A stretch of 64,000 bases of DNA from Gammaproteobacteria bacterium (GTDB lineage Bacteria > Pseudomonadota > Gammaproteobacteria > JAADGQ01), in the NCBI GenBank assembly GCA_013152295.1, contig JAADGQ010000112.1, forward strand, positions 1,977 through 65,976, in the 5' to 3' direction. The translations under genes and the position numbers were made by a program. This document shows positions 10,975 to 57,172 of this stretch, in pieces. The notes beneath the pieces were generated by a model. That model worked only from the letters and a program-made list of their open reading frames with translations. It was not told the DNA's origin and ran no database searches. Numbering within the stretch: position 1 is the stretch's first letter; every line of letters begins with the position of its first letter.

Positions 10975-11497
10975 GATGGCAGCTTCCTCGCTACGAGTGC
11001 CTCTTAAATTAATGAGGCGCTTTAGTTGGTTCGTGTTTCAAAGTGCTTGTTAGAGCTTTAATGACACTCTGTGGCAAGCACATTCTCGGCACAGGATCAA
11101 TGAATGCAATCTTCTCACGATCAGTTTCAACATGATGTCGAGCTGATCACGACGGCTATGTGACTGGTTATCGAAATTTGATTAATCGTGAATGTTGGTC
11201 GATTACGGCGTTTTGGATGGTTTTTTTGCGCGGTTATTTTTGATTACACTGTAAAAATAGCTGTTTTTTCCTGCTTACTTTGAGTTGCAGGCCTGGTACG
11301 TCGGGGGGGTGAGATTTATTGTGTGCTGTCGTTATTCTTTACGATATTCTGATTGTGCATGTCTAAAAAACGAGAATGCCTTTCTGGTGTGCTGAAGGTG
11401 GTATGCACTTTTAGGTGACTTCAGCAATATTTGTGGCTTTGGCAATAAGTGTTAAAGTAGCGCCATTTTTTTGTGGCGTATCTGAAGGGAGAGCTGA

Positions 11498-20322: not shown

Positions 20323-20901
20323 ATGAATCCTGGTTTCAACGCAGGTGGTGTGGGTTACGCGCCATATTCAGCGCGCGGTCCGCTACGTTGTGGTTTTCAT
20401 CGTAGCTGCGGGGTGAGCATGATCGAGGTGCTGGTGGCGCTGGTGTTGCTTTCCATTGGGTTGCTGGGGGTGGCTGCCATGCAGACGACGGGTATTCGCC
20501 AGAGCCACGATTCGCAACTGTTGAGCCAGGCGCTGTTACAAGCGCAGGATATGGCCGATAGAATGCGCGCTAATCTGGTAGCGGTACGCGTGGGTGCGTA
20601 TAGCGCCATCGATGGCAGCGCAGCGGCGATGGATTGTGTCGGCACAAACTGCAGCGCGGATAATATTGCGCAGTATGACGCCTATGTGTGGAATTCCGAT
20701 AATGCCACCCGCTTGCCATCGGGGCAGGGCGTAACCGCTTGCACCGATATCAATGCGGCGACGTCGGTTCTTGATGCTGGTTCCAGCTGCGTGATTACTG
20801 TGCGTTGGGATGGCGAACGTAACGGCGCAACGGGCACCGGTTGCAACGCCACTATCGATACGGACCTGAAGTGTGTTCGCCTGAATTTCGTATTGCCATG
20901 A
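20323..20901 (+). CDS. pilV: type IV pilus minor pilin PilV
   Basis: Class-III signal G|VSMIEVLVALVLLSIGLLGVAAMQ, typical of PilV. The leader as called is long (30 aa), so the true start may be a non-ATG codon downstream. Confidence 0.7.
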   Translation: MNPGFNAGGVGYAPYSARGPLRCGFHRSCGVSMIEVLVALVLLSIGLLGVAAMQTTGIRQSHDSQLLSQALLQAQDMADRMRANLVAVRVGAYSAIDGSAAAMDCVGTNCSADNIAQYDAYVWNSDNATRLPSGQGVTACTDINAATSVLDAGSSCVITVRWDGERNGATGTGCNATIDTDLKCVRLNFVLP

Positions 20902-20921
20902 GTCGATTCGAGGGGGTTTCT

Positions 20922-22022
20922 ATGAGGCAGCAATGTCCTCGTCATTTTCCAATGCGGGCTACAAAGAAATTGATGCCTGTACGGTGGCGTCATCAGCGTG
21001 GGCTCTCCCTGGTCGAAATTCTGGTGGCGGTGACGTTAAGCCTGGTGCTGTTAGGTGGATTGGTGCAGATGTTTGCCGGTAGTAAAGATGCCTATCGGCT
21101 GCAGGGCAATATGAATGTGCTCCAGGATAACGGGCGCTTTGCGACCAACATGATCAAATACAGCATTCGCATGGCGGACCACTGGGGCAATGCCGAGAGC
21201 ATTGTGCCAGCAACGACATCAGCAGCACCGGTAGTGATTGGCAGCGGCAACTGTTCGTCGGCCTGGAGTCTGGATATCAACGAAGCGCTGCACGGCTATG
21301 AGGGCGGTGCAACACCACCCGCAGCTGTTGACTGTATCGCGGCGGGGGATTACGTCACCGGTAGCGACATGGTTGTGCTGCGTTATGCGGGGTCAACGGC
21401 CGTGAGTACCGATGTTGTTGATAATAGCGACACGATCTATGTGCGCGGACGGGTCGGTAGTTCGGGGGTGCTGTTCAAGGGCAGTGAAGTGGCTAGTATT
21501 GACTCCGGTTTGCAGCTTTACGAGGCTGCAAACCCTGATCCTGTTGATGTCAGCAACTATCCCTATCGCGTTGAACTCTACTTTATTCGCCCGTGCAGTG
21601 TGAAATTGGGTACGGTTTGCTCTAGTAGTGACGATAGTGGTCAGCCTATTCCTACGTTGACACGTTACACACTGCTACCCAGTGTTGGTGGTGGCGCTGA
21701 TCAGCTCGTTCAGCAGGCGCTGGTTGAGGGCGTGGAGCAGCTGCAGCTGCAGTACGGCATCGATACCGATGGTGACGGATTTACCAATGTTTATGAGACT
21801 GCAGCAAGTCTCGATGTTAATGGTAGCTATAACTGGGATAGCGTTGTCAGTGTGCGCATGGGGTTGCTGGTGCGTACTATTGAACAGGATGGTGCTTACA
21901 CTTCACCGGCCAGTTACAGCTTGCTGGCGGCGAATGACTACACGGTACCCGCAGCACAGAGAAGTTACCATCGGCAGCTCTTTACACAAATTGTTCAGGT
22001 GCGTAACCGGAGCAGAAACTGA
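20922..22022 (+). CDS. pilW: type IV pilus assembly protein PilW
   Basis: HQRG|LSLVEILVAVTLSLVLLGGLVQMF prepilin-like N-terminus characteristic of PilW. Start placed at the ATG after SD gaggggg; alternative ATGs are at 20952 and 20973, and the track ORF starts at 20841. Confidence 0.7.
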   Translation: MRQQCPRHFPMRATKKLMPVRWRHQRGLSLVEILVAVTLSLVLLGGLVQMFAGSKDAYRLQGNMNVLQDNGRFATNMIKYSIRMADHWGNAESIVPATTSAAPVVIGSGNCSSAWSLDINEALHGYEGGATPPAAVDCIAAGDYVTGSDMVVLRYAGSTAVSTDVVDNSDTIYVRGRVGSSGVLFKGSEVASIDSGLQLYEAANPDPVDVSNYPYRVELYFIRPCSVKLGTVCSSSDDSGQPIPTLTRYTLLPSVGGGADQLVQQALVEGVEQLQLQYGIDTDGDGFTNVYETAASLDVNGSYNWDSVVSVRMGLLVRTIEQDGAYTSPASYSLLAANDYTVPAAQRSYHRQLFTQIVQVRNRSRN

Positions 22023-22066
22023 TGCCCACTCTCGATGGTTATTTTGATTATTCAAATGGTGGCACG

Positions 22067-22741
22067 ATGATGAAAAAAGAGCAGAGCGCTATGCGTTGCA
22101 ATCACACTGTTTCCAGGCACCAGTCGGGCTATGTGCTGGTGACCAGCTTGTTGTTCTTGTTAGTGCTGACAATGGTCGCGGTGGTGAGTACGCAGACAAC
22201 AACGCTTGAGCTGCGCATGAGCGCCAACAATGTGGCAAAGGGGCGCGCCCTTGAGTCATCCGAGGCGCTGCGTCATTTTGCTGGCGAAGTAGTGGATGCC
22301 CATACTTTCCACCAGGGTTGGCCTGTTTCGTTGGGCGGGGGCATCCAGGATAAAGAGTTTGGCGTCACTTTTCCCGCAGGTATCAACTTCGTCAACAAGA
22401 CGGATGGCGTGCCCAATAATATGTATCTGCTGGGTAGCAACGGTGCGGGGGAGAACCCGCTGGACCCCTCAACGCTGGTGAACGATATTACCTACCAGGT
22501 TGATGGCAACGGCGATGGTGACCTGGATGACGGCGTGGATATTTCAGCATCTGTTTCGATCTACCGCTTGCCTGCCACGTCAGCCAAAGGTAGCAATATT
22601 GCGATGGTTTCCGGTTATCTGGGGCTGGGTCGCAGCGCTGCCGGTGGTGGCTCCAATATCTACTACCTGTTGCGCAGCACAGGCACCTCGGCCGGTGGTG
22701 CGCGGGCCGTGACCGCTAGTGAGTACCGTTATGTGCCTTGA
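22067..22741 (+). CDS. pilX: type IV pilus minor pilin PilX
   Basis: N-terminus QSGYVLVTSLLFLLVLTMVAVVSTQTT matches the PilX N-terminal domain pattern (QxGxVLIVxLIxLLVLT). Start chosen at MMKKE (22067); the track ORF starts at 22022. Confidence 0.7.
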   Translation: MMKKEQSAMRCNHTVSRHQSGYVLVTSLLFLLVLTMVAVVSTQTTTLELRMSANNVAKGRALESSEALRHFAGEVVDAHTFHQGWPVSLGGGIQDKEFGVTFPAGINFVNKTDGVPNNMYLLGSNGAGENPLDPSTLVNDITYQVDGNGDGDLDDGVDISASVSIYRLPATSAKGSNIAMVSGYLGLGRSAAGGGSNIYYLLRSTGTSAGGARAVTASEYRYVP

Positions 22742-22830
22742 TGTTGGATAGATGTACTGTGGTAGACCGAACCAGTCCCAATACAGCTGCCCTCGGAGTC
22801 AATCGAGAGGCGTTTAGCCAGGAGAGCGTG

Positions 22831-25800
22831 ATGACGTTTGTTAATGCCCGCTTAGCGGGTTTTTTGAAGGGCATGCTGTTAAGTGTTCTATTTGTCCCTG
22901 TCATCTATACCGTGCCACTGCATGCCGAAGTGTCAGGTGATCGACTGGGCGACTTCACCGTGTATCCGACAGTGACTCCGGAGTCCGTGACGCCGATGGT
23001 GCTGATTGCCGCATCCAACGACCATCAACTCTATTTCAAGGCGTACAGCGACTATCACGATATCGACGAAGATGGTGTTGTTGATAGTAAAGATATCACC
23101 TACAACCATGCTGTCGACTATTACGGCTACTTTGACAGTGGCAAATGTTACAGCTACAGCGGTGATCGCTTTGTGCCCAGCAGTCTGGCTGACAGCAACA
23201 ACTACTGCTCGGGCGCGACGTGGAGCGGCAACTTTCTGAACTGGGCGACAATGGCGCGCATTGATGCGGTGCGCAGAGTGCTGTTTGGTGGACATCGACG
23301 CATCGATACGGCCGGTAGCACGGTTTTGGAACGCACTTATCTGCCCAACGATGCCCACAGTTGGGCCAAATATTACAGTGGCAGTGATCTGGAAAATTTG
23401 ACGCCGTTTAGCGGGCCGGATATCGCTGACGGCATTACACTCTGCAATACTACCGTCAATAATGGCAGTCTGACCTCACAGAATGTTACCGACCCACCAT
23501 TAGTACGTGTTGCACGGGGTAACTATTCGCTATGGGCAGGGAATGAGCGTTGGCAGTGTCGTTGGAGTGGTGAAAAAAATTCATCAAATGGCAATGACCC
23601 GGCCAAGTCTGGCATTAACGCCAGTGCGTCGAGCCCGAGCCTGGATGACGACGGACTGGGCGGCGGGGATTATACGGTGCGCGTTGAGGTCTGTGTCTCC
23701 TCCATGCTGGAGGCGAATTGCAAAGAGTACCCGGATGGTAACTACAAGCCGATTGGTCTTCTTCAGCGTTACGGCGATGATGACAAACTGCTGTTCGGTA
23801 TGTTCGCGGGTTCGTATCAGAAGAATAAATCGGGTGGGGTTCTGGTCAGTGACATCGGCAGTATGAGCGATGAAATAAACGTCGATAGCGATGGCACCTT
23901 CAAAAAGGTGGCAGCGACCGCTCAGAATGGCGGGGTTGCCTCGGCTGCCGCCGGGGGCATTATCAATGCGTGGAGTCTCTACCGAATCATTAACTATCGA
24001 TATGGTGGTAGCGGTGAAAATCCCGGTACTTACGGTGTTGATGGTAATAATGCTGATAACTGCAAGTGGGGGCTGAACAGCTTTCCTAATGGCACCTGCC
24101 AGAACTGGGGCAACCCCTTTTCTGAAATCTATCTGAATGCGCTGCGTTATCTGGCGGGACAAAATCCGACTACACAGTTCAGTACCAGTGGCACGCCGGT
24201 CATTGATGGTTTGACGACGCCGAGTTCGTGGAACTGCCCGTTAAGTGAGGATAATGCCTGTGCGCGCTTGAGCATCGTCAATATTAACGCCAGCGTGCTC
24301 TCTTATGACGGTGACGAACTCGATGGTGCCGGCTACGGTATCGGTACATTGGGTGCTTCTCAAGACTCTGCACAGTTAACGGATATCGTTGGCGAGGGGG
24401 AGGGTATTCATGGCAACAGCTACTTTGTTGGCGCAAACGGTAGCGATAACAATCAGCTCTGCACCGGGAAAACAGTGAGCAGTCTGGGGGCAGTGGAGGG
24501 CATCTGCCCGGAGGCACCACGACTCGATGGTAGCTACCGCATTGCCGGTCTTGCCCACTGGGCACACACCAATGATATTCGCTCGTCAGACACCGCGAAT
24601 GATGCAGAGTTAGAGGGCACGCAGTCGGTGGATACCTACTCCGTTGTTCTTGCGCCCGCCCTGCCAAAGATCAGCATTCCTGTGCCTGGATCTGCTACCG
24701 CGACTATCTCGATTCTGCCTGCCTGTCAGAGTTTTTATAACGGTGGTTTGGTGGGCAACTGTGCGATCGTCAACTTCCAGATTGTAACGCCATATACGCT
24801 ATCCTCTGACGGTAGCAGTGCGGTCGGGAAATTTTATGTCAACTGGGAAGATAGCGAACAGGGTGGTGACTTCGATAACGACATGTGGGGCACAATAGAG
24901 TACACCATCACTGCGAGTACAGTGGCGGTGACCACCGAAGTACACGACGAAGCGGCTGATTTCAATATGGGGTTTGGCTATGTTATTGGTGGCACGACTC
25001 AGGATGGTTATCACGCCCACTCGGGGATAAACGGTTATAGCTACACGGACCCGACAGGTGTCTCCGCCTGTTCGGGCTGCGAAGAGAGTAACCCAGCGAC
25101 TCGTGTGACCTATGCCATCAATGCCGGAGGTAGTGTCGTGACGCTGCTTGAAGACCCCCTTTTCTATGCGGCGAAATGGGGTAACTTCAACGATAAAAAC
25201 GGCAACGACAAGCCTGATCTGCAGTCGGAGTGGGATGAGCAAGATGCGGATGGTAAAGATAATCCAGACGGCCTTCCTGACAACTATTTTTTGGTGACTA
25301 ATCCACGCAAACTTGAAGATTCACTGCAGCGGGTTTTTGAAGCAGTTTTAGAGAAGACCGCTTCAGGTACGGCAGCCTCGGTTGCCACAGCCAGCCGTGA
25401 GGGAACCGGCGCTGTCTATCAGGCGCTTTACGAAACGACAGTTATCGATTCCGATGCCAGAGAGGCGCGCTGGATTGGCAACGTTCACGCGCTGTGGATC
25501 GACCAGAATGGATTCATGCGCGAAGACGGTGGCGTAAAAGGCAAGCTGGAGGGGTATGACGTCGATCCCGTGATTGAGATCTTTTATGACGCGAACGACA
25601 AGGTCACGCGTGTACGGCGCAAAAGCAGCTCCAGTTCAGGGACGTTCGAGGACTCGGGCTCCTCTGTTGTGCCGCTAAGCGAGCTGAATCCGATCTGGAA
25701 TGCACGCGATCAGCTCTCCGCACTCTCGGCGGCGACGATTGATTCACAGCGCGTCTACGCTTCGCTCGCCAGCGGTGGTCGGCATATTGTGACCTCCTTC

Positions 25801-27627
25801 GACGGTGTAGCGCTGGACGATTTTGAGCGCAGTGAAATCACCACATCCAATTACGGCTATTTCAATGTGGCGTTACGCACTGAGGCGCAGGATCTGGTCG
25901 ACTATATTCGTGGCAAAGAGGTTACTGGACTGCGCAACCGGACAGTTGATTACGACGGTGATAATTTGCCAGAGGTGATGCGCCTCGGCGATATCATCCA
26001 CTCGACGCCGACGCCCGTCGGTGCACCAGCAGAGGACTTTCAGCTGCTCTACGGTGACACCTCCTACGATACGTTTCGTAAAGCCTACCTGAAGCGTCGC
26101 CAAGTGGTCTATGTGGGTGGCAATGACGGCATGCTGCACGCGTTTAATTCCGGTTTTTACGATGCGGCGAACCAGAGTTTTGTCAAGCAGCTCAATGGTG
26201 AGGTTGAGCATCCGTTGGGTAGCGAGCTGTGGGCATATGTGCCGCGCGCGCTGTTGCCACATCTCAAATGGTTGGCGGACCCCGACTATACCCATGTCTA
26301 CTACATCGACGCTCAACCGCGTGTATTCGATGCGAAAATTTTTCCCAGCGATACCGATCACCCCGGTGGATGGGGCACAGTGCTTGTTGTCGGTATGCGT
26401 TTCGGTGGTGGGGCGATGACCATTGATACCGCAGCAGATGGCTTGAACGGTGGTGCTGATGACATTGAGCTGCGCTCCTCATATGTCATTATGGATATCA
26501 CCAACCCCGAGTCACCGCCCAGCCTGATCGCCGAAATATCGCCAGAAAACCTCGGTTTTACCACCTCATTCCCGACAGCGATGGCGATTCGTGAAAATGA
26601 CGGATCACCCAATCAGTGGTATCTGATTTTTGGCTCTGGCCCCACCAATTTAGGTACGGCGACCAGCAGCCAGACGGGACGAATTTTTATATACGACCTG
26701 AATGACAAAAATTTTGTCGGTGGTTATGGTGGTAATGGCACGAAAAACGCGTTGGATGGCAACAGCTTTGTCGGCAATCCGGTGACTGCCGACTGGAATC
26801 TCGACTATAAGGCCGATGCGCTCTATTTTGGAACAGCGGCAGGAGCGGCAGCCTCTCCCTCCGGCAAGCTTTACCGTCTGCTCATTAATGGAGAGTCTGA
26901 CGAGACCGCCTGGCCGAGCCCCGATCTGCTACTGGATGCGGGGCAGCCAATGCTGGTGACACCCGCGTTGGGTATCGACAGCAAGCTTAATCGCTGGATC
27001 TTTCAGGGTACCGGGCGCCTCTTTGTCAGTGAAGATGAAGCCAGCAAGGCACAGCAATCGCTCTATGGGGTAATCGATAAAAATGGTGAGGTTGGCAGTA
27101 ATGCTACGGCTAAGGCGGATCTGTTAAATGTGACTGCGGCGGTTGTGAAAGGGGATGGCTCGGTGAGTGGTGTGGGGTCGGTATCTGACTTTGACTCACT
27201 CGAAACTGCAGTCGAGAGTGCCGGGGGTTGGCAGCGTGATCTGCCGGTCTCTAGCACTAAGTCAGCGGAGCGTATGGTCAGTGAGTTGGCCCTGTTGAGC
27301 AAAGTGCTCTTTGCAGCAGCATTCACCCCCGACACCGATCAATGTAATGCGGAGGGGGCGAGTGTTCTCTATGGTTTAAATTTCACCACCGGCACAGCAT
27401 CGCCGACGCTGCCTACATTTGGTACAGACTCGGGCGGTATATCTACTCCCAGTGTCTATCTGGGCGTTGGGTTGGCAGCGACACCCAGTCTGCACGCAGC
27501 GGCTGGACTGAACAGTAATCAAGTGAACATTCTGGTGCAGACGGCGCAGGGTGAGATCATACAGATGGATGCCAATACCGGCTCATCGGCGCACAGTGGT
27601 GAAACTTCCTGGCGGGAGATTCAGTAG
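22831..27627 (+). CDS. pilY1: type IV pilus tip adhesin / assembly protein PilY1 (PilC family), unusually long
   Basis: Signal peptide MTFVNARLAGFLKGMLLSVLFVPVIYTVPLHAEV, after SD aggaga. Conserved PilY1 N-terminal block (YFDSGKCYSYSGDRFVP...CSGATWSGNFLNWATMARIDAVRRVLFGG). C-terminal PilC/PilY1 beta-propeller block (VVYVGGNDGMLHAFNSGFYD...ELWAYVPRALLPHLKWLADPDYTHVYYIDAQPRVFDAKIF...VLVVGMRFGGGAMTID). Roughly 1600 aa, versus about 1000-1200 for typical PilY1. Confidence 0.85.
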   Translation: MTFVNARLAGFLKGMLLSVLFVPVIYTVPLHAEVSGDRLGDFTVYPTVTPESVTPMVLIAASNDHQLYFKAYSDYHDIDEDGVVDSKDITYNHAVDYYGYFDSGKCYSYSGDRFVPSSLADSNNYCSGATWSGNFLNWATMARIDAVRRVLFGGHRRIDTAGSTVLERTYLPNDAHSWAKYYSGSDLENLTPFSGPDIADGITLCNTTVNNGSLTSQNVTDPPLVRVARGNYSLWAGNERWQCRWSGEKNSSNGNDPAKSGINASASSPSLDDDGLGGGDYTVRVEVCVSSMLEANCKEYPDGNYKPIGLLQRYGDDDKLLFGMFAGSYQKNKSGGVLVSDIGSMSDEINVDSDGTFKKVAATAQNGGVASAAAGGIINAWSLYRIINYRYGGSGENPGTYGVDGNNADNCKWGLNSFPNGTCQNWGNPFSEIYLNALRYLAGQNPTTQFSTSGTPVIDGLTTPSSWNCPLSEDNACARLSIVNINASVLSYDGDELDGAGYGIGTLGASQDSAQLTDIVGEGEGIHGNSYFVGANGSDNNQLCTGKTVSSLGAVEGICPEAPRLDGSYRIAGLAHWAHTNDIRSSDTANDAELEGTQSVDTYSVVLAPALPKISIPVPGSATATISILPACQSFYNGGLVGNCAIVNFQIVTPYTLSSDGSSAVGKFYVNWEDSEQGGDFDNDMWGTIEYTITASTVAVTTEVHDEAADFNMGFGYVIGGTTQDGYHAHSGINGYSYTDPTGVSACSGCEESNPATRVTYAINAGGSVVTLLEDPLFYAAKWGNFNDKNGNDKPDLQSEWDEQDADGKDNPDGLPDNYFLVTNPRKLEDSLQRVFEAVLEKTASGTAASVATASREGTGAVYQALYETTVIDSDAREARWIGNVHALWIDQNGFMREDGGVKGKLEGYDVDPVIEIFYDANDKVTRVRRKSSSSSGTFEDSGSSVVPLSELNPIWNARDQLSALSAATIDSQRVYASLASGGRHIVTSFDGVALDDFERSEITTSNYGYFNVALRTEAQDLVDYIRGKEVTGLRNRTVDYDGDNLPEVMRLGDIIHSTPTPVGAPAEDFQLLYGDTSYDTFRKAYLKRRQVVYVGGNDGMLHAFNSGFYDAANQSFVKQLNGEVEHPLGSELWAYVPRALLPHLKWLADPDYTHVYYIDAQPRVFDAKIFPSDTDHPGGWGTVLVVGMRFGGGAMTIDTAADGLNGGADDIELRSSYVIMDITNPESPPSLIAEISPENLGFTTSFPTAMAIRENDGSPNQWYLIFGSGPTNLGTATSSQTGRIFIYDLNDKNFVGGYGGNGTKNALDGNSFVGNPVTADWNLDYKADALYFGTAAGAAASPSGKLYRLLINGESDETAWPSPDLLLDAGQPMLVTPALGIDSKLNRWIFQGTGRLFVSEDEASKAQQSLYGVIDKNGEVGSNATAKADLLNVTAAVVKGDGSVSGVGSVSDFDSLETAVESAGGWQRDLPVSSTKSAERMVSELALLSKVLFAAAFTPDTDQCNAEGASVLYGLNFTTGTASPTLPTFGTDSGGISTPSVYLGVGLAATPSLHAAAGLNSNQVNILVQTAQGEIIQMDANTGSSAHSGETSWREIQ

Positions 27628-44902: not shown

Positions 44903-47353
44903 CTAGAAAAGCTGTTGCTCTTCAGTGGTGCCCCCTTCGTTGCTGGATGAGCCTTCGCTACTTTGGCTTTGGGCTTGCGGCGGCTCGGCATGCTGTTGAG
45001 GCATGTTTTCTACGCGAAACGTCTCAAAAATAGCATTTTTCTGGCCAGCGTAGGCCAATAGACCGGTTTTTGGGTCGATGCGTACTGTAGTGAGTCCGGG
45101 TGGTCGCTCTAGGTAGTTCTCCGGGGTTCCTTTAAGCGCTTCGCGCATGTAGCTGACCCACATAGGTAGTGCGGCACGACCGCCGGTTTCGCGAGCGCCG
45201 AGGGGCATCCCTTTGTCAAATCCGACCCAGCAAATAGTGGCTACTTTGCTGTTGAATCCAGCGAACCAGGCGTCTCGTTGGTCGTTTGTCGTCCCCGTCT
45301 TACCTGCAATATCGGCGCGGCCCAATGCTTTGGCGCGCACCCCAGTGCCGCGCTGAATAACATCGCGCATCATGCTGGTAATAAGGTAAGCGTTTTGGGG
45401 GCTGATGACGCGCTCAGCGATGTTGACGTCATCGGGCACCGAAAATTGGGCGGCGTCATCTATGGTGGCGCTGTTGCCGTCAGATGTTAGCTCACCAATG
45501 CATTCGGGGCAGACGATTGTGGGCTTGCTTTGCATGATGGTTTCGCCATTGGCTGCTTCTATGCGCTCGATGAAGTAGGGGGGGATACGGTATCCGCCGC
45601 TGGCCAGAACGGCATATGCCTGGGCCATGTTCCATGGTGTGACGGCGCCGCTGCCTAGCGCTAGCGATAGATTCTTGGGCAATTTATTGCGGTCGAAGCC
45701 AAAACGAGAGATGTAGTTAACCGTGTACGAAATGCCGATGCTTCTCAGCAGCCGGATGGAAACAAGGTTGCGTGACTTGATTAATGCCTGGCGCAACCGG
45801 GTCGGTCCATAAAAGCGCCCACTATAGTTCTCGGGTCGCCAAACGCTTTCCAGGGCGGAGTCTTCGAATACGACGGGGGCATCATTGATCAGGCTTGCTG
45901 GGTGGTAGCCTTTCTCCAGTGCAGCAGAGTATATCAACGGTTTAAAGCTTGAGCCGGGTTGGCGGGTGGCTTGTGTTACGCGGTTAAAGCGGCTCTTGTT
46001 GAAATCGTAGCCGCCGACCAACGCGATGACATGACCATCTTCCGGATCGACAGATATCAAAGCACCCTCGACTCTTGGGGTTTGGGCGAGGAGCCACTGC
46101 TGCTCTGTATCTTTCTCCAGCAGGATGATGTCACCTGCTGTAGCGATGTCGGATGCTTTTTTGGGTGCTGGACCGCGTCGGTCGGTGCTGATGTAGCGGC
46201 GTGCCCAAGAGAGTCCTTGCCATGCGATCTCGGCACTCTCCCCAGACGATAATATCGCGCTGATTTTTTGGTCGGCGACCTCCAGCACGAGAGCGGGCGT
46301 GAGCGCGCCGAAGGATGGTAAAGACTTTAAACGTTGTTGCTGCTGCTCAGTTTGTTGCAGGGTATCCAGATCTATATGGCCGATAGCGCCCCGGTAACCG
46401 TGGCGCCTCTCGTACGCGACGAGGGCTCTGCTTAGCGCCGTATCGGCGGCAGTTTGCAGACGACTGTCGATGGTCGTGATAACTTTATAGCCCGCTGTAT
46501 AGGTGGTTTCTCCGAACTTTTTCAAAGCTGCAATGCGGGCCATTTCGGCAATATGCGGTGCCTTGGTTTCGATTGACAGATCGTGGAGTTGAGCGTCATC
46601 CGCCTGGCTCAGCGCATTGGCCATTGTCTCTTTGGATATGTAATCCAGTTGGCCCATGCGGCGCAGTATGTAGTTACGGCGAATAAGTGCTCTGTCAGGG
46701 TTGGCAACAGGGTTAAATCTAGATGGTGCTTTTGGCAGACCGGCGATCATCGCCATTTGGGCAGTGGATAGTTCTGCCATTTTGGCGTCGTAGTAGACCT
46801 GAGCGGCGGCGGCCACACCGTAGGCGCGCTTGCCCAAATATATCTTATTCAGATAGAGCTCAAGTATCTCCTCTTTGCTGAGCTGTTTTTCGATCTTAAG
46901 CGCTAGCAAAATCTCGTTGAATTTGCGCAAGTAGGTTTTCTCTTTGCTGAGAAAGAAGTTGCGTGCTACCTGCATGGTGATCGTGCTACCACCTTGCCCT
47001 TTCTTACCGGTTTTAATGAGGTGAACGGCGGCTCGCAATAGCCCCTGAAAATCAACGCCGGGGTGGCTGAAAAAGCGGTCGTCCTCCGCAGCAAGTATCG
47101 CCTTGATCATCAGCGGTGGGATTTCGACGTACTCCAATGGCGAACGCTTCATCTCACCAAATTCGCCAATGAGCTTGTTGTCACGGCTGTAGACTCGCAA
47201 TGGGGTTTGCAGCTGAACGTCTTTTAAACTCTCAATGGAAGGTAGTTTGGGGGAGAGGTAAAAATAGATGCCGGCCGAGATAGCGCATCCGATGACGATC
47301 ATGGTCGCTGCCGTGAGCGCCATGTAACGCAGCATCCTTGGTATAAGTTTCAT
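44903..47353 (-). CDS. mrcA: penicillin-binding protein 1A (bifunctional glycosyltransferase/transpeptidase)
   Basis: 816 aa. N-terminal anchor, GT51 motifs (EDDRFFSHPGVD, GGSTITMQVARN), transpeptidase motifs (SSFKP, SRN, KTGT). Divergent from pilM as in Pseudomonas and Neisseria. Confidence 0.9.
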   Translation of the reverse strand: MKLIPRMLRYMALTAATMIVIGCAISAGIYFYLSPKLPSIESLKDVQLQTPLRVYSRDNKLIGEFGEMKRSPLEYVEIPPLMIKAILAAEDDRFFSHPGVDFQGLLRAAVHLIKTGKKGQGGSTITMQVARNFFLSKEKTYLRKFNEILLALKIEKQLSKEEILELYLNKIYLGKRAYGVAAAAQVYYDAKMAELSTAQMAMIAGLPKAPSRFNPVANPDRALIRRNYILRRMGQLDYISKETMANALSQADDAQLHDLSIETKAPHIAEMARIAALKKFGETTYTAGYKVITTIDSRLQTAADTALSRALVAYERRHGYRGAIGHIDLDTLQQTEQQQQRLKSLPSFGALTPALVLEVADQKISAILSSGESAEIAWQGLSWARRYISTDRRGPAPKKASDIATAGDIILLEKDTEQQWLLAQTPRVEGALISVDPEDGHVIALVGGYDFNKSRFNRVTQATRQPGSSFKPLIYSAALEKGYHPASLINDAPVVFEDSALESVWRPENYSGRFYGPTRLRQALIKSRNLVSIRLLRSIGISYTVNYISRFGFDRNKLPKNLSLALGSGAVTPWNMAQAYAVLASGGYRIPPYFIERIEAANGETIMQSKPTIVCPECIGELTSDGNSATIDDAAQFSVPDDVNIAERVISPQNAYLITSMMRDVIQRGTGVRAKALGRADIAGKTGTTNDQRDAWFAGFNSKVATICWVGFDKGMPLGARETGGRAALPMWVSYMREALKGTPENYLERPPGLTTVRIDPKTGLLAYAGQKNAIFETFRVENMPQQHAEPPQAQSQSSEGSSSNEGGTTEEQQLF

Positions 47354-47701: not shown

Positions 47702-49339
<1,638 letters not shown>

Positions 49340-49343
<4 letters not shown>

Positions 49344-49948
49344 ATTGGTCTGAGCTGCAAAATCTTGACTTGAGCGAGGTGGGAGACTGGCCAGTACCCA
49401 TCAAAACAGGTGCGGTTATTCTTGTTTGTGCTGCGGTGCTCGCTGCAGGTGTGTGGTTTGATGCGCGCGAGCAGATGACAGTTTTGGAGAGCGCTCAAAA
49501 AAAAGAGATCGAAATTAAAGAAGAGTACGAGATTAAGCAGCACAAAGCGGCAAACCTTGAAGATTACAAAGAGCAGATGGTGGAGATGGAGCGTGATTTT
49601 GGCACCATGTTGCGGCAGTTGCCGAGCAAAACAGAGGTTGCGGAGCTGCTGGTTGATATTTCGCAGGCAGGTCTGAGTAACGGCTTGGAGTTTGAGCTGT
49701 TCAAACCTGAACGAGAAAAGCCTATCGAGTTCTACGCAGAATTACCGATAAAAATAGTAGTTAAGGGCTCGTATCATGAGTTTGGCAAGTTTGTCAGTGA
49801 TGTTGTTGCACTGCCCCGTATTGTCACTTTGCAAGATATTTCTATAAAGAAAAAAGATGATAAATCTAAAGAGTTAACGATGAATGCGACGGCGACGACA
49901 TACCGCTACTTTGAGGAAGAGAGTGAAGAGGGCGATGCAGGTGGATAG
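49340..49948 (+). CDS. pilO: type IV pilus inner-membrane component PilO
   Basis: Overlaps the pilN stop (ATGA). Single TM then periplasmic domain, 202 aa. Confidence 0.85.
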
Positions 49949-49960
49949 GGTAAGTCGGTC

Positions 49961-50506
49961 GTGATTTTTCATGCCAATAGAGTGATTATGGTTGGGCTTG
50001 CTGTGAGCGTGCTCTTGCTGAGTGGCTGCGGTGGCGACAACCTGAATGATCTGCGCGATTATGTTGCGGAGGTTCAGTCGCGGCAAAAGGGGCGGATTCC
50101 ACCGCTCCCTGTTGTGCGTCCGTTTGAGCGTTTTGTTTACGACGCTGAAGAGATGCGCGCGCCCTTTGCCAGTTGGTTTGTGGCATTGACAGATGCACCT
50201 GCCGAGAATGGTGAAAGGGATGCTTCTTCCATTCATCCTGATGAGGTACGTAATCGTGAGCCTCTGGAGCGATTTTCGTTGCAGACACTGAGAATTGTTG
50301 GCACGTTGGCTATGGAGAACGAGCGATGGGCTCTGATCAAGTCGCCAAAAGGTATTGTCTCAAGGGTACGACGTGGCAACTATATTGGTCAAAACCACGG
50401 TCAAATCATGCGCATTGATGAGAACGAAATTGAGCTCAAAGAGATTGTGCGGGATGGGCTGGATGGTTGGCAGGAGCGGCAAGTCGTATTGGTACTCGTC
50501 GAATGA
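49961..50506 (+). CDS. pilP: type IV pilus lipoprotein PilP
   Basis: Lipobox LLLSGCGG and PilP-type C-terminal beta domain. Start may be the internal ATG at 49988. Confidence 0.8.
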   Translation: MIFHANRVIMVGLAVSVLLLSGCGGDNLNDLRDYVAEVQSRQKGRIPPLPVVRPFERFVYDAEEMRAPFASWFVALTDAPAENGERDASSIHPDEVRNREPLERFSLQTLRIVGTLAMENERWALIKSPKGIVSRVRRGNYIGQNHGQIMRIDENEIELKEIVRDGLDGWQERQVVLVLVE

Positions 50507-50709
50507 GAGCGGTAGGTTGATAGTGAATGGTCTCTTTTTGGGCTCGGATGACGCGATGCTTGATCGCAATAAAGTACGCCCGCGTGACGGGTCGTGCGAT
50601 ACAAATCACAGGAAATGTTATGCATACGTCGTATTTGGCCTCTGATCTCACCTCTGATCCGAATAGTGCGGTGCACTCGACCTCCCTCCGAGAGAGAGGT
50701 AGTCGCACG

Positions 50710-52905
50710 GTGAAGCAGGCTGTCGTTGGTTTGAATGTCGTGTTTTTTCTGGTTTTTTGCCAGGCTGCGATGGGCACCAATGCGTTAAAGGCAATAAACC
50801 ATGCTGCCCTTCCCGGTGACCGTATTCAACTTGAGCTAGTAATGGCTGAGGCGGCTTCGGAACCTTTAAGTTTTACCATTGACAACCCGGCCAGAGTGGC
50901 ACTGGATTTTGCGGATACAGTCAGTAAGCTTGCCAGAAAAAAACAGCCGATCAATATCGGTGTCGCCAGAAGTGTGCATGCGATTGAAGCGAAGGGGAGG
51001 ACCCGGATTGTACTGAACTTGTTAAAAATGGTGCCTTATCAAGTCAAAGTCAAAGGTAATCGGGTCTACTTGACCCTCGGTGAAAAACCGCAGGCGGAGG
51101 CAGAGAAATCTGCTGATGTATTGGTGTCGTCGGCACCCGCATCGCCGTCGGTGGTTTCTGCACCCACGTCAGCTAAGGCTCAGCAACTGACGGTTACGAC
51201 TGCAGAGAAAGAGACCCTGCGTGCTGTTGATACCCAGGCAGAGCAAAGACGAGCTATTCGTAATATTGATTTTCACCGTGGTGAGGATGGTGAGGGTCGT
51301 GTGGTCGTGACGTTATCTGATGCCAGTGTGCTGGCTAATATTGAGGAGCGTGGGGGCGAGATCGTTGCGGATTTTTTAGATGTACAGCTACCCGATGAGC
51401 TGGAATTGCACCTGGATGTTGTTGATTTTGCGACGCCTGTCAACAGTATTGAAACCGTGGCGCGGGGTCCTAATGTGCGTATGCGCATCGTTACACAGCG
51501 GGATCGTGAATATCTGGCGTACCAGTCAAATAAACTGTTTGTTATTGAAGTTAAACCTCTGACCCGAGCGGAGCAGGAGGCAGCAAAAAAAGAGCGCTTT
51601 GGTTACACGGGCGAACGCCTCTCCCTTAATTTTCAAAATATTGAAGTGCGAGCAGTACTGCAGCTGATTGCCGACTTTACCGGACTCAATATTGTCGCCA
51701 GTGATTCTGTGACGGGTAGCATTACTTTGCGGTTAAAAAGTGTTCCCTGGGATCAAGCATTAGATATCATCCTTAAAGCACAAGGCTTGGCGCTACGTAA
51801 ACATGGCAACGTCGTGATGATCGCTCCGGCTACTGAGCTTTTGGCGCGAGAGAAAAAAGAGCTTGAGGCACAAAAGCAGGCGGAGGAACTCGTACCGCTT
51901 CGCTCCGAAATTATCAGCATTAATTACGCTAAAGCACAAGACCTGGCCAACCTCCTCAAGGGCGAAGATAATTCGTTGCTTTCCGAACGTGGCAATGTTG
52001 CTGTAGACGTACGAACCAACTCTCTATTGGTGCAAGATACCGACGAAAAATTAATAGAATTGAGAAAACTGCTGACCACATTGGATGTGCCCATCAAGCA
52101 GGTGTTGATTGAATCCCGTGTGGTGATCGCTAATGATAATTTTGGTAAATCGTTAGGGGTCAGGTTTGGTGCAACAGGTGTTCGCAAAAATGGCAGCGAT
52201 GGAATCATCACAACAAGCGGCAACGCTGCGGGTACCGATAGCACAGTTAGTAGCGCGATCAGTAATCTACAGGCGACAGGTCAGCAGTTTCCCGTTTCGG
52301 TCCCGTCTCTTGGTGATCGCATGAATGTTAACTTGCCGGTTTCGTCGCCTGCGGGGCAAATTGCTTTCGCCATACTAGGATCAGATTATCTGTTAGATCT
52401 TGAGCTATCAGCCATGCAGGTGGAGAACCGGGGAGAGATTGTCTCCAGCCCGCGCGTTATTACCTCGGACCAAAATGAAGCGGTGATAGAACAAGGTACC
52501 GAGGTGCCCTATATTACGCCAGCCTCCGGTGCCAGTAATGTGCCTGCTGTTGCTTTTAAAAAAGCAGTATTGAGTTTGAAAGTGACACCGCAGATAACCC
52601 CGGATAACCGCATCTTGCTCGATCTGACGGTCAATAAAGATAGCGTGGGCAGGATCTTTAACGGTGTCCCCAGTATCGACACCAAAGAGGTGAAAACGCA
52701 AGTACTGGTTAAAGATGGAGAGACGGTAGTGTTAGGGGGGGTCTATGAGCAGGTTACCCGCGATGAGAAAGACATGGTGCCGTTTTTGGGTGAGCTGCCG
52801 TTTATAGGCGTCCTATTTAGACAGACGCGCCAAGTTAATGAAAAAGCGGAGCTTCTGATTTTTGTCACGCCGCGTATATTAAAAGGCTCGACAGATCAGC
52901 AGTGA
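50710..52905 (+). CDS. pilQ: type IV pilus secretin PilQ
   Basis: C-terminal secretin domain (VLIESRVVIANDNF...ELLIFVTPRI) and N-terminal AMIN-type region. I prefer the GTG at 50710 after SD agagaggt, which gives a classic signal peptide M/VKQAVVGLNVVFFLVFCQAAMG. The track ORF begins at 50527 with a 60-codon leader that lacks a signal peptide. Confidence 0.85.
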   Translation: MKQAVVGLNVVFFLVFCQAAMGTNALKAINHAALPGDRIQLELVMAEAASEPLSFTIDNPARVALDFADTVSKLARKKQPINIGVARSVHAIEAKGRTRIVLNLLKMVPYQVKVKGNRVYLTLGEKPQAEAEKSADVLVSSAPASPSVVSAPTSAKAQQLTVTTAEKETLRAVDTQAEQRRAIRNIDFHRGEDGEGRVVVTLSDASVLANIEERGGEIVADFLDVQLPDELELHLDVVDFATPVNSIETVARGPNVRMRIVTQRDREYLAYQSNKLFVIEVKPLTRAEQEAAKKERFGYTGERLSLNFQNIEVRAVLQLIADFTGLNIVASDSVTGSITLRLKSVPWDQALDIILKAQGLALRKHGNVVMIAPATELLAREKKELEAQKQAEELVPLRSEIISINYAKAQDLANLLKGEDNSLLSERGNVAVDVRTNSLLVQDTDEKLIELRKLLTTLDVPIKQVLIESRVVIANDNFGKSLGVRFGATGVRKNGSDGIITTSGNAAGTDSTVSSAISNLQATGQQFPVSVPSLGDRMNVNLPVSSPAGQIAFAILGSDYLLDLELSAMQVENRGEIVSSPRVITSDQNEAVIEQGTEVPYITPASGASNVPAVAFKKAVLSLKVTPQITPDNRILLDLTVNKDSVGRIFNGVPSIDTKEVKTQVLVKDGETVVLGGVYEQVTRDEKDMVPFLGELPFIGVLFRQTRQVNEKAELLIFVTPRILKGSTDQQ

Positions 52906-53015
52906 GATTAAATTGTACTGTGCCAAATAGCTGGATGGCATGGTTTGAATAGTAAACTGCAGCACTACAACAGATCAGGTTTTGTAACATGATGATGAAT
53001 GGTTGGAGAGAGACT

Positions 53016-54878
53016 ATGTGGCAGGCCTTGAGCCGCTTGATGGTGGCTGCTTTGGTTATGGTGGTGGCCGCTTGTGGTGGCGGCGGATCTGGTTTTTCTG
53101 GCTCAGATAGTGATGGTGGTACGACAACGGGTGGAGGAGGAACTAGCAGCAGCGCTAGCAGCGTGGTGCTGGTACTCTCCAGCCCATTTTTACCCTCCGA
53201 TGACAGTCAAAAAATAACGGCATCCGCGATTGTTAGGGATGCAAACAATAACTTGATGAGTGGAGAGACGGTGGTGTTTTCTGCTAACTCTGGCGCTTTG
53301 CTTGTGATGCAACCGACTACGGGTGATAGTGGCGCGGCTATTGCGGAATTAGGAACGGGTGGTGATTTCAGTAATCGTGATGTGACTGTATCTGCTGCTG
53401 TGGGTGATGCGACGGCAACAGCTATTGTGACCGTGTCGGGGACCACGATAGCGATTAGTGGTGAAAATTCTACGGTACTGAATGGCACTCAGGATCTCAG
53501 TATCACACTGAAGGATGCAGCGGGCGCAGGTATTGGTGGTAGCACGATTGCGCTGAGCTCTGCTCAAGGTAATACGCTAAGTGCAACCACGCTAACAACT
53601 AATGCTGTGGGAGTTGTGGATGCTGTGGTTCGTGGTGATGTATCGGGCGCAGATACGATCCAAGCGTCTGCGTTGGGTGCTAGTAGCTCTTTTAGTTTTA
53701 ACGTATCACCTGATGCATTTGAGATCGAGCAACCCAATCCGAATGTTATAGAAGAGGTTCAGTTGGGTGTCAGTCAGACTGTCACTGTTCGTTGGTTGAA
53801 AGATGGTGTTCCTCAAGGGGGGCAAACTGTAAACTTTAGTGCTACACGAGGTACGATCACTCCATCGTCTGCGATCACTGATGGTAGCGGTGTTGCTATC
53901 GCGACTATTTCGTCAACGGATGCGGGGCCAGCTGTGATCGCTGTAACAACCGCCACGACATCAGCGCAAGTAGAAATTGAGTTTGTAGCTACTATTGCAG
54001 ATGAAATATCAGTTCAGGCTGATCCGGAGTCAGTTGCTTTTGGTGGTCAGCAGAGCACTATTACTGCCGTGGTACGCGACCCCAATAATAACTTAGTTAA
54101 AAACAAAAGGATTCGTTTTGTTTTGTCTGACGTGACTGGTGGTACGATCGGGCCGGCAACGGGAGAAACGGATAGTAATGGCTCCGCCAGTACGGTCTAT
54201 ACCTCCAGTAATACATCGAGTGGCGGTGGGTCTGTTTTGGTGACGGCAATTGTTGATGATACACCCGCAGTCACTGGGACCGTCAGTTTAACTGTAGGAC
54301 AGCGCGCACTCTTTATTACCGTGGGTACGGGCAACGAAATAACAGAACCGAATTCGACGGAGTATATAAAGCCTTATTCGGTGTCGGTGAAGGATGTTAA
54401 CAGTAACGCTGTTGCCGGTAAAACGGTGCAGCTGAGGTTGATCTCTACGCGTTACGATAAAGGCGAATATCGAGCCACTGATACCGATGGCGATGGAAAT
54501 TTTGACAGGTGGGTTGCTTTCACTTCGCTTCCTGCGCCATGCTCTAATGAAGACATCAATGGTGATGGTTTTCGGGATGCAGGCGAAGATACGAATAACA
54601 ACCAACAGTTGGATCCGGGTAGCCCGGCTTCGGTTGTGGGAAGTGTTGTAACCGGGAGCGATGGCAGTGTTGAAGTGGGAGTTAAATACCCACAAGAGTA
54701 CGGTGAGTGGGTGGAGGTAAGGTTAGAGGCTACAGCATCAGTGGCTGGTACCGAATCTTTGGCATCGAAAACCTTTTGGTTGCCGGTGTTGGCAGCGGAC
54801 GTACTTGATGAAAATATAGCACCTCCTGGACTGAGAAGCCCCTTTGGGGTGGCTGGTTCGTGTCTCGATCCAACTTGA
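53016..54878 (+). CDS. lipoprotein composed of tandem bacterial Ig-like (Big_1/invasin-type) domains, inserted between pilQ and aroK
   Basis: Start at the ATG after SD ggagag (track ORF starts at 52989). Lipobox MVVAAC, a Gly/Ser/Thr linker, then at least four repeats of about 90 aa each with the invasin/intimin Big_1 pattern ([89 protein letters not shown]). C-terminal Asp-rich segment ([11 protein letters not shown]...[21 protein letters not shown]). No terminator in the 83-nt gap after pilQ; the stop lies 26 nt before aroK. Confidence 0.7.
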
Positions 54879-55471: not shown

Positions 55472-56554
55472 GTGATGAAAACACTCTACGTTGAGCTCGG
55501 CGCGCGCCGTTATCCCATTCATATTGGCGCGGATCTTCTCGGCCGTGCTGAGCTGTTGTCACCCAATATTCGCGCTCGACAAGTGATGGTGGTGAGCAAT
55601 GAAACCGTTGCGCCACTCTACCTCGATCGCTGCCTGTCTGGTCTGAGTCGTTTTCAGTGCGAGTCAGTGATTCTGCCTGACGGTGAGCAATACAAGAGAC
55701 TTGAAGTGCTCAATCAGATTTTTGATGCGCTGCTCAAGAACCGCTTCGACCGTCAGGCCACTGTTGTCGCTTTGGGTGGCGGGGTGATTGGTGACATGGC
55801 TGGTTTTGCCGCAGCCTGTTATCAGCGCGGCGTACCGTTTATCCAGTTGCCGACGACGTTGCTAGCGCAGGTGGACTCTTCCGTTGGCGGCAAAACGGCC
55901 GTAAACCACGCCATGGGCAAAAACATGATCGGCGCTTTTTATCAGCCGCAATGTGTGATTGCCGATACTCAAACGCTGAACACACTGGATGATCGTCAGC
56001 TGCGTGCCGGGATTGCCGAAGTGCTCAAGTATGGGTTGATTGGTGATAGCGAATTTTTCCAATGGTTAGAGGCGCACGGCGCTGAGCTGATGGCACGGGA
56101 TAGTGACGCGTTGGCTTATGCCATCGAGCGCTCATGCCAGAGCAAAGCGGATGTGGTCGCCGCCGATGAACGCGAGGGTGGCGTGCGTGCGCTACTGAAT
56201 CTTGGCCACACCTTTGGTCATGCTATCGAAGCGGGTGCTGGTTATGGCTGCTACCTGCATGGCGAGGCAGTTGCCGTTGGCATGTGCATGGCAGCCCATC
56301 TCTCTGCACGTATGGGCTGGCTTGAGAGCCAAGACGAGTCACGCATCGAGAGGATGATTGATGGGCTCGGTCTGCCGGTCAGGCCGCCAGCGGGTTTGAC
56401 GGCGCAGCGTATGCTTGAGTTGATGGCCGTGGATAAAAAGGTGTTGCAGGGGCGCATCCGTCTGGTGCTGTTGAAAGGAATTGGTCGCGCTGTGATCAGC
56501 GATGATTATGACGAAGCGGCGCTGCATGCCACGCTGCACCATTTTTGCGTTTGA
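55472..56554 (+). CDS. aroB: 3-dehydroquinate synthase
   Basis: 360 aa with NAD-binding [14 protein letters not shown] and metal-site His residues. aroK-aroB pair follows the pil operon. Confidence 0.9.
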
Positions 56555-56596: not shown

Positions 56597-57172
56597 TTAC
56601 TGAGCGCTCTGTTTTTTCAGCGCCTTCTCTTTTTTTCTGAGGAAAGAGACAATGTCGCCATTTTGCTCCTTGAATGCCAGCTCAGAGGCTCTTCTGCCTT
56701 CATCGTTGGTGAGGGTTACGTCAGCGCCATTGGCAACCAGCAGCTTGACGATAGCGAGGTGATCACTGGCTGCAGCCCAATGTAGGGCTGTCCACTTGAC
56801 GTTGGTTTTCATGTTGGGGTCTGCGCCGTTATCGAGGAGTAGCTGCGCAGCCTGCAGGTTTCCCTTCATCGACGCGCGTATCAGCGCGCTCCACTGATCC
56901 TGATCCTGGGCGTTAACGTCAGCGCCCTTTTCAATCAACAGTTTGACCAGCTCAGTGTGGCCCTGACGCGCGGCGTGCATCAGCGCAGTCCAGCCAAAAT
57001 TGTTGCGTTCGTTGATGTCACCGCCTTCAGCGAGTGACTTTTCAACAGCGTCGCGATCGCCGTTGACCACCTCATTCATGAGCGGTGTGTTGTCATCACA
57101 ACCACCCAGTAGCAGTGGCGTTACGCAAAGCGCTGCTATCAAAAATATCCGCAGTGGGGCAGGTGTGTGCAT
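56597..57172 (-). CDS. ankyrin-repeat lipoprotein
   Basis: Signal/lipobox LLLGGC followed by about five ankyrin repeats (GWTALMHAARQGHTELVKLLIEKGADVNAQD...WTALHWAAASDHLAIVKLLVANGADV). Confidence 0.7.
   Translation of the reverse strand: MHTPAPLRIFLIAALCVTPLLLGGCDDNTPLMNEVVNGDRDAVEKSLAEGGDINERNNFGWTALMHAARQGHTELVKLLIEKGADVNAQDQDQWSALIRASMKGNLQAAQLLLDNGADPNMKTNVKWTALHWAAASDHLAIVKLLVANGADVTLTNDEGRRASELAFKEQNGDIVSFLRKKEKALKKQSAQ

Follow-up and report, generated by a model that had tools for sequence, protein, structure and literature searches.

A family of predicted Ig-domain lipoproteins encoded next to the type IVa pilus secretin gene pilQ

A 64,000-nucleotide stretch of contig JAADGQ010000112.1 from a Gammaproteobacteria bacterium, here called the window, carries a gene between the type IVa pilus secretin gene pilQ and aroK. 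The product of this gene (gene X), protein X, is predicted to be a lipoprotein with five immunoglobulin (Ig)-like domains. The family of protein X is undescribed in papers and curated families, and many bacteria carry it immediately after pilQ. From its sequence and that of its relatives, protein X appears to be a single-unit member of a lipid-anchored Ig-fibre family with a genetic link to the secretin operon of the type IVa pilus. A tentative reading, to which we give a little less than even confidence, is that it is a lipid-anchored, Ca2+-binding Ig stalk, made alongside the assembly and secretin proteins of the pilus and exposed at the cell surface, where it would serve as a short-range adhesin or spacer. 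The genes pilMNOPQ are among the best-studied and most invariant type IV pilus gene strings; a conserved sixth gene, carried by many Gammaproteobacteria from the environment, and its giant forms are newly described here.

A conserved gene family following pilQ

The extra gene between pilQ and aroK, first noticed in a sequence-only reading of the window, is real: its open reading frame (ORF) lies on the forward strand, and the flanking PilP, PilQ, AroK and AroB were verified by profile searches. The arrangement of ponA divergent from pilM-pilN-pilO-pilP-pilQ-aroK-aroB is also as that reading stated, judged by ORFs, Pfam and NCBIfam (Table 1). That reading took it for an extra gene inserted into the operon; it is not peculiar to this genome, as its family follows pilQ in most informative genomes. 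A protein search with X gave 789 matches. Over 100 of them are full-length orthologues, 600-720 aa long and with 41-51% identity; few of the orthologues are named, and these are labelled at most 'Ig-like domain-containing protein'. For synteny, one genome per species (GTDB) was sampled, the best 80 of 161 loci encoding an X relative were taken, and neighbouring genes were called by tblastn with PonA, PilM to PilQ, AroK and AroB of the window. Among these species-representative genomes, pilQ is immediately 5' of gene X in 67 of the 76 informative loci, with a median gap of 46 nt across relatives, and aroK is immediately 3' in 62 of 71. The relatives share the layout of ponA divergent from pilM, with Transgly and Transpeptidase domains. 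A lipobox is encoded in nearly all X loci, followed at position +2 by Gly, Ser or Asn, and once by Asp. At two loci, L041 and L051, gene X follows pilQ and aroK was not detected in the ~1.5 kb and 6 kb downstream, respectively.

The carriers belong to Woeseiaceae, Lentisalinibacter, Steroidobacteraceae, Nevskiaceae, Chromatiales/Chromatiaceae, Competibacteraceae and Salinisphaera, and include many gammaproteobacterial metagenome-assembled genomes (MAGs). One further homologue, without pil neighbours, is on a contig binned as Verrucomicrobiia (L079), which could be mis-binned or reflect horizontal transfer. In Salinisphaera sp. (L003, L004 and L005, at about 10507-11031), a gene for an RDD-family membrane protein is located between aroK and aroB; other junctions of the gene string therefore accept extra genes as well.

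As would be expected of a type IVa pilus component, protein X is encoded in a pil operon and its synteny is conserved; another mark of such a component, membership of a pilus protein family already known, was not found in Pfam or NCBIfam. The sequence-only reading knew of no type IV pilus component of such an architecture, and neither these family databases nor the literature gave one. Literature searches turned up neither a gene located between pilQ and aroK nor an Ig lipoprotein belonging to pilMNOPQ. Two publications considered in this connection, a preprint on the secretin interactor Slk and a paper on the Pseudoalteromonas adhesin BapP, are unrelated to X.

Domain organization of protein X

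The only Pfam family above its cutoff in protein X is Big_1, which is present four times (E 1.1e-34; 118.8 bits versus a cutoff of 34.9). No NCBIfam family qualifies, there being just a partial match to intimin (19 bits versus a cutoff of 2,050 bits). Comparison with the Protein Data Bank (PDB), by sequence and structure, matched intimin (6tpl, E 1.5e-17 by sequence), invasin (1cwv) and InvE (5n40). An AlphaFold2 model built on 86 homologues has a mean predicted local distance difference test score (pLDDT) of 91.8, and a second model reaches 94.1; both are confident. Foldseek comparison of the full model with the PDB was uninformative, giving just generic arrays of Ig or macroglobulin-like domains (complement C3, alpha-2-macroglobulin, titin, invasin).

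The features read earlier from the letters of the gene, namely a lipoprotein signal, a Gly/Ser/Thr-rich linker, at least four Big_1-like repeats and an Asp-rich C-terminal segment, are all borne out by these profiles and models (Table 1). The lipobox cysteine, Cys20, is invariant in the 86 homologues. The tether that follows it has pLDDT below 50 at residues 20-42 and is the least conserved region of the protein, with 28% pairwise identity. The Asp-rich segment resolves into two tandem EF-hand-like loops and a DTDGDG loop, all within a fifth Ig-like domain (D5), which is beta-rich, has a long loop at residues 503-542 in the model, and is without a Pfam model.

The two EF-hand-like loops are conserved as a family trait. 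Their family consensus sequences are D-x-N-x-N-G-x-L-D-x-G-E (513-524) and D-x-N-x-N-G-x-L-E-x-G-N (525-536), and among the 86 homologues D513, G518 and D525 are kept in all, N527 in 85, E524 in 81 and L520 in 77. Scored for six features of an EF-hand loop (position 1 D, 3 D/N, 5 D/N/S, 6 G, 8 hydrophobic, 12 acidic), the consensus of the first loop has six of six and that of the second has five (Asn at 12). The protein of the window has five in the first loop (Arg520 at position 8) and four in the second (Gln530 in place of Gly at 6, and Ser536 at 12). The DTDGDG loop (residues 489-500) is common to only three of the 86 homologues. The only cysteines besides Cys20 are Cys509 (54540-54542), just upstream of the loops, and Cys616 (54861-54863), both invariant in the homologues. 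From these residues D5 is predicted to bind Ca2+ through its loops and to be held together by a clamping disulfide between Cys509 and Cys616. The isoelectric point of the acidic mature protein is ~4.

Several known surface proteins resemble this design in part. The inverse autotransporters intimin and invasin (type Ve secretion) share with X the Big_1 domains and the rod-plus-tip design. However, protein X has no match to a beta-barrel or LysM domain, only 47 residues (signal helix plus tether) precede its first Ig domain, and a C-type lectin-like tip was tested for and is absent; X is lipid-anchored according to its lipobox, and because it lacks the beta-barrel and lectin tip it is not an intimin or invasin. 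LigA and LigB of Leptospira are Ca2+-binding surface adhesins in which a lipobox precedes many bacterial Ig-like domains in a row. They share the lipobox and the Ig-like array with X, but their domains are Big_2 rather than Big_1, they belong to spirochaetes, and they are not known to be linked to pilus genes. InvL of Acinetobacter baumannii is a 492-aa barrel-less lipoprotein with invasin-type Ig domains, an adhesin displayed on the surface in a manner that depends on the system for type II secretion (T2SS) (PMC9245377). In both InvL and X a lipoprotein signal stands in place of a beta-barrel anchor and is followed by an invasin/intimin-type Ig rod, and both are associated with a secretin-containing type IV filament machine, on which InvL depends and to which X is linked by gene position. 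InvL has three Ig domains and a C-type lectin-like cap, whereas X has five, the last with EF-hand-like loops, and no cap; the InvL gene, as far as the paper says, is not in a secretin operon (PMC9245377). Of the proteins characterised so far InvL is the nearest analogue, and protein X would work most like an InvL-type barrel-less lipoprotein that differs in domain number, tip and genetic context, a likeness drawn from the published description of InvL.

Giant relatives and the possible site of action

A profile of D5 has matches in 2,521 cluster representatives, and 994 of these reach E <= 1e-30. Next to proteins of the usual 600-650 aa, the matched ones include some of 1,200-7,473 aa with several D5 copies. 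Five such giants were looked up, and four of these are in pilMNOPQ clusters: P0135 (2,774 aa; locus L090), P0123 (2,196 aa; L093) and P0168 (4,127 aa; L095) are encoded immediately after pilQ, and P0121 (3,083 aa; L091) after pilQ-aroB, leaving P0122 (7,473 aa; L094) as the sole pil-unlinked one. By BLASTP, whole copies of the X unit in tandem number three in P0121 (each 43-45% identical over ~600 residues), two in P0123, two in P0168 and at least five in P0122, and P0135 has one near-full-length copy plus partial copies. The five-domain unit of ~600 aa, four Big_1 domains and the decorated fifth domain, behaves as a super-repeat in the giants. A clear lipobox and Gly/Ser tether are found in P0135, P0123 and P0168, P0121 has an atypical LVQC, and about half of the relatives longer than 1,200 aa start with an X-like lipobox and Gly/Ser tether. 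At L060, the product of the gene just upstream of aroK-aroB has a length of at least 1,720 aa; its D1-D5 unit is preceded by 13 or more additional Big_1 repeats that are nearly identical. The locus of P0135 is fairly close to the organism of the window (PilM 73% identical); those of P0121 and P0168 belong to distant pilus systems (PilM 33% and PilQ 36% identical to those of the window). The locus of P0168 (L095, 1-7766) is also unusual in that its PilP (502 aa) and PilQ (1,215 aa) are much above the usual size; the gene for the 4,127-aa Big_1 lipoprotein comes next.

At an assumed ~4 nm per domain, a giant rod of 20-40 Ig domains would be ~70-160 nm long. Such rods exceed the periplasm, and therefore the family, single-unit X included, is most simply placed outside the outer membrane. 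That adjacency to pilQ recurs over great evolutionary distances and among proteins differing seven-fold in size is not readily put down to inertia, and because family members also follow pilQ where no aroK was detected and in distant systems, the link is with pilQ itself rather than with the pilQ/aroK junction. The presence of giant relatives at pilQ shifts the interpretation towards the cell surface: among an adhesin, a surface-display module and a periplasmic secretin-associated factor, the sequence evidence favours the first two.

The surface stalk may be pictured as follows. Gene X would be transcribed with pilMNOPQ, and probably on into aroK-aroB, as gene spacing and the lack of a predicted terminator suggest. 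The Sec and lipoprotein pathways would acylate Cys20, and Gly at +2 would, by the sorting rules, direct the protein to the outer membrane. The flexible tether of 27 residues would bear a rigid rod of four Big_1 domains, a fold predicted with high confidence, capped by the fifth Ig domain with its putative Ca2+-binding loops and clamping disulfide. The rod would stand on the cell surface, as InvL does in Acinetobacter, and might serve as a Ca2+-dependent short-range adhesin or spacer that engages after pilus retraction draws the cell to a surface. For the crossing of the outer membrane, the adjacent secretin PilQ is the obvious candidate route, though a speculative one. If protein X is such a stalk, it would add short-range adhesion to pilus-mediated attachment in bacteria of sediment, soil and sludge.

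The divergence of X equals that of the periplasmic pilus proteins (Table 1). Between orthologues, each of the five domains is 46-56% identical, about evenly, whereas sister domains within one X protein are only 23-43% identical, over partial local alignments; every position of the rod is therefore individually constrained. In a comparison of pairwise distance matrices for 39 syntenic loci and the window, X has its strongest correlation with PilQ (r = 0.73). The partial correlation of X and PilQ is 0.46 when aroB, aroK and pilM are controlled for (label-permutation p = 0.0005), beside 0.51 for PilN-PilO and 0.47 for PilN-PilQ, and it is 0.34 when all six other genes are controlled for, a setting in which X-AroK gives 0.03. 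These values do no more than suggest that the divergence of X tracks PilQ specifically, as shared phylogeny inflates correlations of this kind and genes that are neighbours may recombine jointly.

Several further observations count against the surface stalk. Most syntenic X orthologues have a fixed length of five to six domains and evolve no faster than PilP and PilN, a pattern that resembles a part of the machine more than a typical adhesin, and Gly at +2 predicts that ordinary Lol sorting places the protein in the outer membrane's inner leaflet, with no evident mechanism for flipping to the surface. Both points agree with an alternative that we consider unlikely, in which X is a periplasm-facing outer-membrane lipoprotein and a secretin accessory, its Ig rod of ~20 nm acting as a belt, strut or pilotin-like factor beside PilQ. 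The rod would then form a link from the outer membrane or the secretin to either peptidoglycan or the alignment complex PilNOP. A lipoprotein gene right after the secretin gene fits stoichiometric co-expression, Gly or Ser at +2 predicts outer-membrane sorting with a periplasmic orientation by default, each domain of the fixed-length orthologues is conserved, and X co-varies with PilQ. There is also a precedent in DR_1364 (GspP) of Deinococcus radiodurans, a 155-aa protein with a single IPT/TIG domain, seen by electron cryo-microscopy bound to the secretin as a 15-mer belt (PMC10828601). Both DR_1364 and X are Ig-fold lipoproteins tied to a secretin of the type IV filament superfamily, the tie of X being one of gene position, and they differ in that X, at 620 aa, is a rod of five domains and has giant relatives.

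These relatives oppose an accessory in the periplasm, for versions of 2,196-4,127 aa and of at least 1,720 aa at the same position, with rods of up to the lengths estimated above, exceed that compartment; the existence of unlinked members is a second objection. A third is the lack of similarity to known accessories. The type IVa proteins tied to PilQ, which are PilF/PilW/Tgl (outer-membrane lipoproteins), TsaP and FimV, have tetratricopeptide repeat (TPR) or LysM folds; none of them is built of Ig domains, and X has no match to their Pfam or NCBIfam models or to those of the PulS/AspS pilotins. Secretin pilotins (PilF/PilW/Tgl; PulS/AspS/MxiM) are small and have a TPR or pilotin fold, whereas X, a lipoprotein by its lipobox, is an Ig rod of 600 residues. 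If X were a secretin accessory after all, it would be a new part of the machine.

The members unlinked to pil genes are a further point against the surface stalk. In nine of the 76 informative genomes, X is away from pil genes: in Paraglaciecola it is between a dicarboxylate symporter gene and astB, as it probably also is in Pseudobowmanella, judged by ORF layout alone; in a Marinobacter MAG it is between priA and argS; and in Hydrocarboniphaga effusa it is between genes for an ATP-binding cassette (ABC) transporter and alanine dehydrogenase. A clade of longer relatives, 900-1,050 aa in length, is likewise unlinked, as is the 7,473-aa P0122. The genes for three of 900-1,000 aa (L088, L089 and the P0085 locus) share a second recurring context that has nothing to do with pili, in which they come after genes for a thiolase and a ChsH2-like OB-fold protein and are followed by one for a 4HBT thioesterase, and P0066 (1,050 aa; L086) is near gltB/gltD; on account of these contexts, the possibility that the 900-1,050-aa proteins are pilQ-linked length variants was rejected. 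Because unlinked members exist, linkage of X to pilQ in cis is not obligatory.

Protein X could accordingly be a hitchhiker, an envelope or surface protein unrelated to pili that occupies a permissive slot in the stable pilMNOPQ-aroK-aroB string. To our knowledge, aroK and aroB have long been kept in this string without a function in pili, and the nine genomes and the clade of longer relatives carry X elsewhere, apparently alone; the domains of X are generic, too. We nevertheless regard such an origin as rather doubtful, since the link to pilQ recurs in very distant systems, in loci without a detected aroK and for proteins of 600-4,127 aa, and since the partial correlation is with PilQ, with none for aroK.

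How a surface stalk would leave the periplasm is a separate matter, on which a bolder proposal can be made. The type IVa pilus is a sister machine of the T2SS. Protein export does occur through some machines of the type IV pilus kind (PMC10120004; bioRxiv 10.64898/2026.05.11.724269). For these two reasons PilQ is the natural candidate conduit, and the X family, from 600-aa units to 4,000-aa fibres, might cross the outer membrane via PilQ in a T2SS-like manner and stay lipid-anchored on the surface. We hold this to be a long shot, and we know of no demonstration of lipoprotein export by a type IVa pilus, which also bears against the surface stalk in general. If PilQ were needed for X to reach the surface, it would be the first type IVa pilus secretin to export a lipoprotein, and X would offer a tractable model for how secretins handle lipid-anchored substrates, a question left unresolved according to the authors of the InvL study (PMC9245377). 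Export through PilQ would also make the family a dedicated class of Ig-fibre adhesins coupled to the pilus, with members in several gammaproteobacterial orders as well as in at least two pilus systems that are more distant.

Other periplasmic roles for X, as an LpoA-like activator in the outer membrane that reaches PBP1A (the ponA product) or as a small protease trap resembling alpha-2-macroglobulin, are very improbable. The giant homologues argue against a periplasmic location for either. X is five genes from ponA, and ponA is adjacent to pilM also in Pseudomonas and Neisseria, where nothing separates aroK from pilQ. Bacterial alpha-2-macroglobulins are of ~1,600 aa, with multiple macroglobulin-like (MG) domains and a CxEQ thioester motif. 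Protein X, at 620 aa about one third of this size, has no cysteine in a CxEQ context, and its match to MG2 is 18 bits versus a cutoff of 32.8, so that it was rejected as a member of that family.

Gene boundaries and other features of the window

The ORF of gene X is open from ATG 52989 (629 aa) and contains an internal ATG at 53016 (620 aa); its stop codon is at 54876-54878. ATG 53016 is the likelier start because a Shine-Dalgarno-like GGAGAG is found 6-11 nt upstream. The gap of 83 nt after pilQ given by the sequence-only reading applies only to ATG 52989 and becomes 110 nt with ATG 53016. At this distance, and with the median of 46 nt in relatives, the translational coupling with pilQ that had been suggested is unsupported. 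The absence of a terminator after pilQ does stand: the pilQ-X gap (52906-53015) and the X/aroK junction are both free of predicted terminator-like hairpins and of promoter-like sites on the forward strand. The start of aroK is ambiguous between GTG 54860 (overlapping X by 19 nt), TTG 54875 (a TTGA overlap with the stop codon) and GTG 54905 (a gap of 26 nt). The last had been proposed earlier and is favoured by the N-termini of AroK in relatives. In pilQ, the longest ORF begins at ATG 50527 and a hydrophobic stretch resembling a signal peptide, VVGLNVVFFLVFCQAAMG, appears only at about residues 66-83; the real start is probably ~150-190 nt downstream of this ATG, which would make the pilP-pilQ spacer unusually long.

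Table 1. Features of the window, with the median identity of relatives' proteins to the window's proteins.
Feature	Position	Strand	Residues of protein X	Description and evidence	Median identity
pilW	20841-22022	+		Pfam PilW, N_methyl, PilX_N, T4P_PilY1 over pilW-pilX-pilY1	
pilX	22022-22741	+		same pilW-pilX-pilY1 scan	
pilY1	22738-27627	+		1,629-aa PilY1-like protein	
ponA (PBP1A)	44903-47353	-		ORF; divergent from pilM	
pilM	47705-48778	+		ORF	54%
pilN	48771-49343	+		ORF	44%
pilO	49340-49948	+		ORF	50%
pilP	49961-50506	+		Pfam PilP	40%
pilQ	50527-52905	+		Pfam Secretin, AMIN (two), STN, Secretin_N; NCBIfam TIGR02515 IV_pilus_PilQ, 518 bits	57%
pilQ-to-gene X gap	52906-53015	+		110 nt	
gene X	53016-54878	+		620-aa predicted lipoprotein, five Ig-like domains	41%
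Lipoprotein signal peptide	53016-53075	+	1-20	helix 2-19, lipobox V-A-A-C, Cys20, Gly at +2	
Gly/Ser/Thr-rich tether	53076-53156	+	21-47	disordered in model	
Four Big_1 Ig domains, D1-D4	53157-54299	+	D1 48-142; D2 143-240; D3 241-327; D4 328-428	Pfam Big_1 (four); AlphaFold2 model	
D5	54300-54875	+	429-620	fifth Ig/macroglobulin-like sandwich, inserted loop, C-terminal tail	
Two tandem EF-hand-like loops	54552-54623	+	513-524; 525-536	12 residues each, inside D5	
aroK	start 54860, 54875 or 54905; end 55444	+		Pfam SKI; NCBIfam AroK, 220 bits	55%
aroB	55472-56554	+		Pfam DHQ_synthase, DHQS_C	57%

Elsewhere in the window, a pilW-pilX-pilY1 cluster (20841-27627) is located upstream of the divergently oriented ispH and ileS, and therefore the organism encodes minor pilins and a PilY1-type tip adhesin in addition to pilMNOPQ. 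The 1,473-aa product of a reverse-strand gene (6553-10974) carries repeats of the bacterial thrombospondin type-3 family (TSP3_bac) along with an Ig domain, He_PIG, and is probably another large Ca2+-binding surface protein. Just after aroB, also on the reverse strand (56597-57172), is a gene for a 191-aa ankyrin-repeat protein with a lipobox-like LLLGGC followed by Asp-Asp. Asp-Asp after the lipobox cysteine is an inner-membrane retention signal in E. coli, and by its sequence this protein may be a periplasmic ankyrin lipoprotein.

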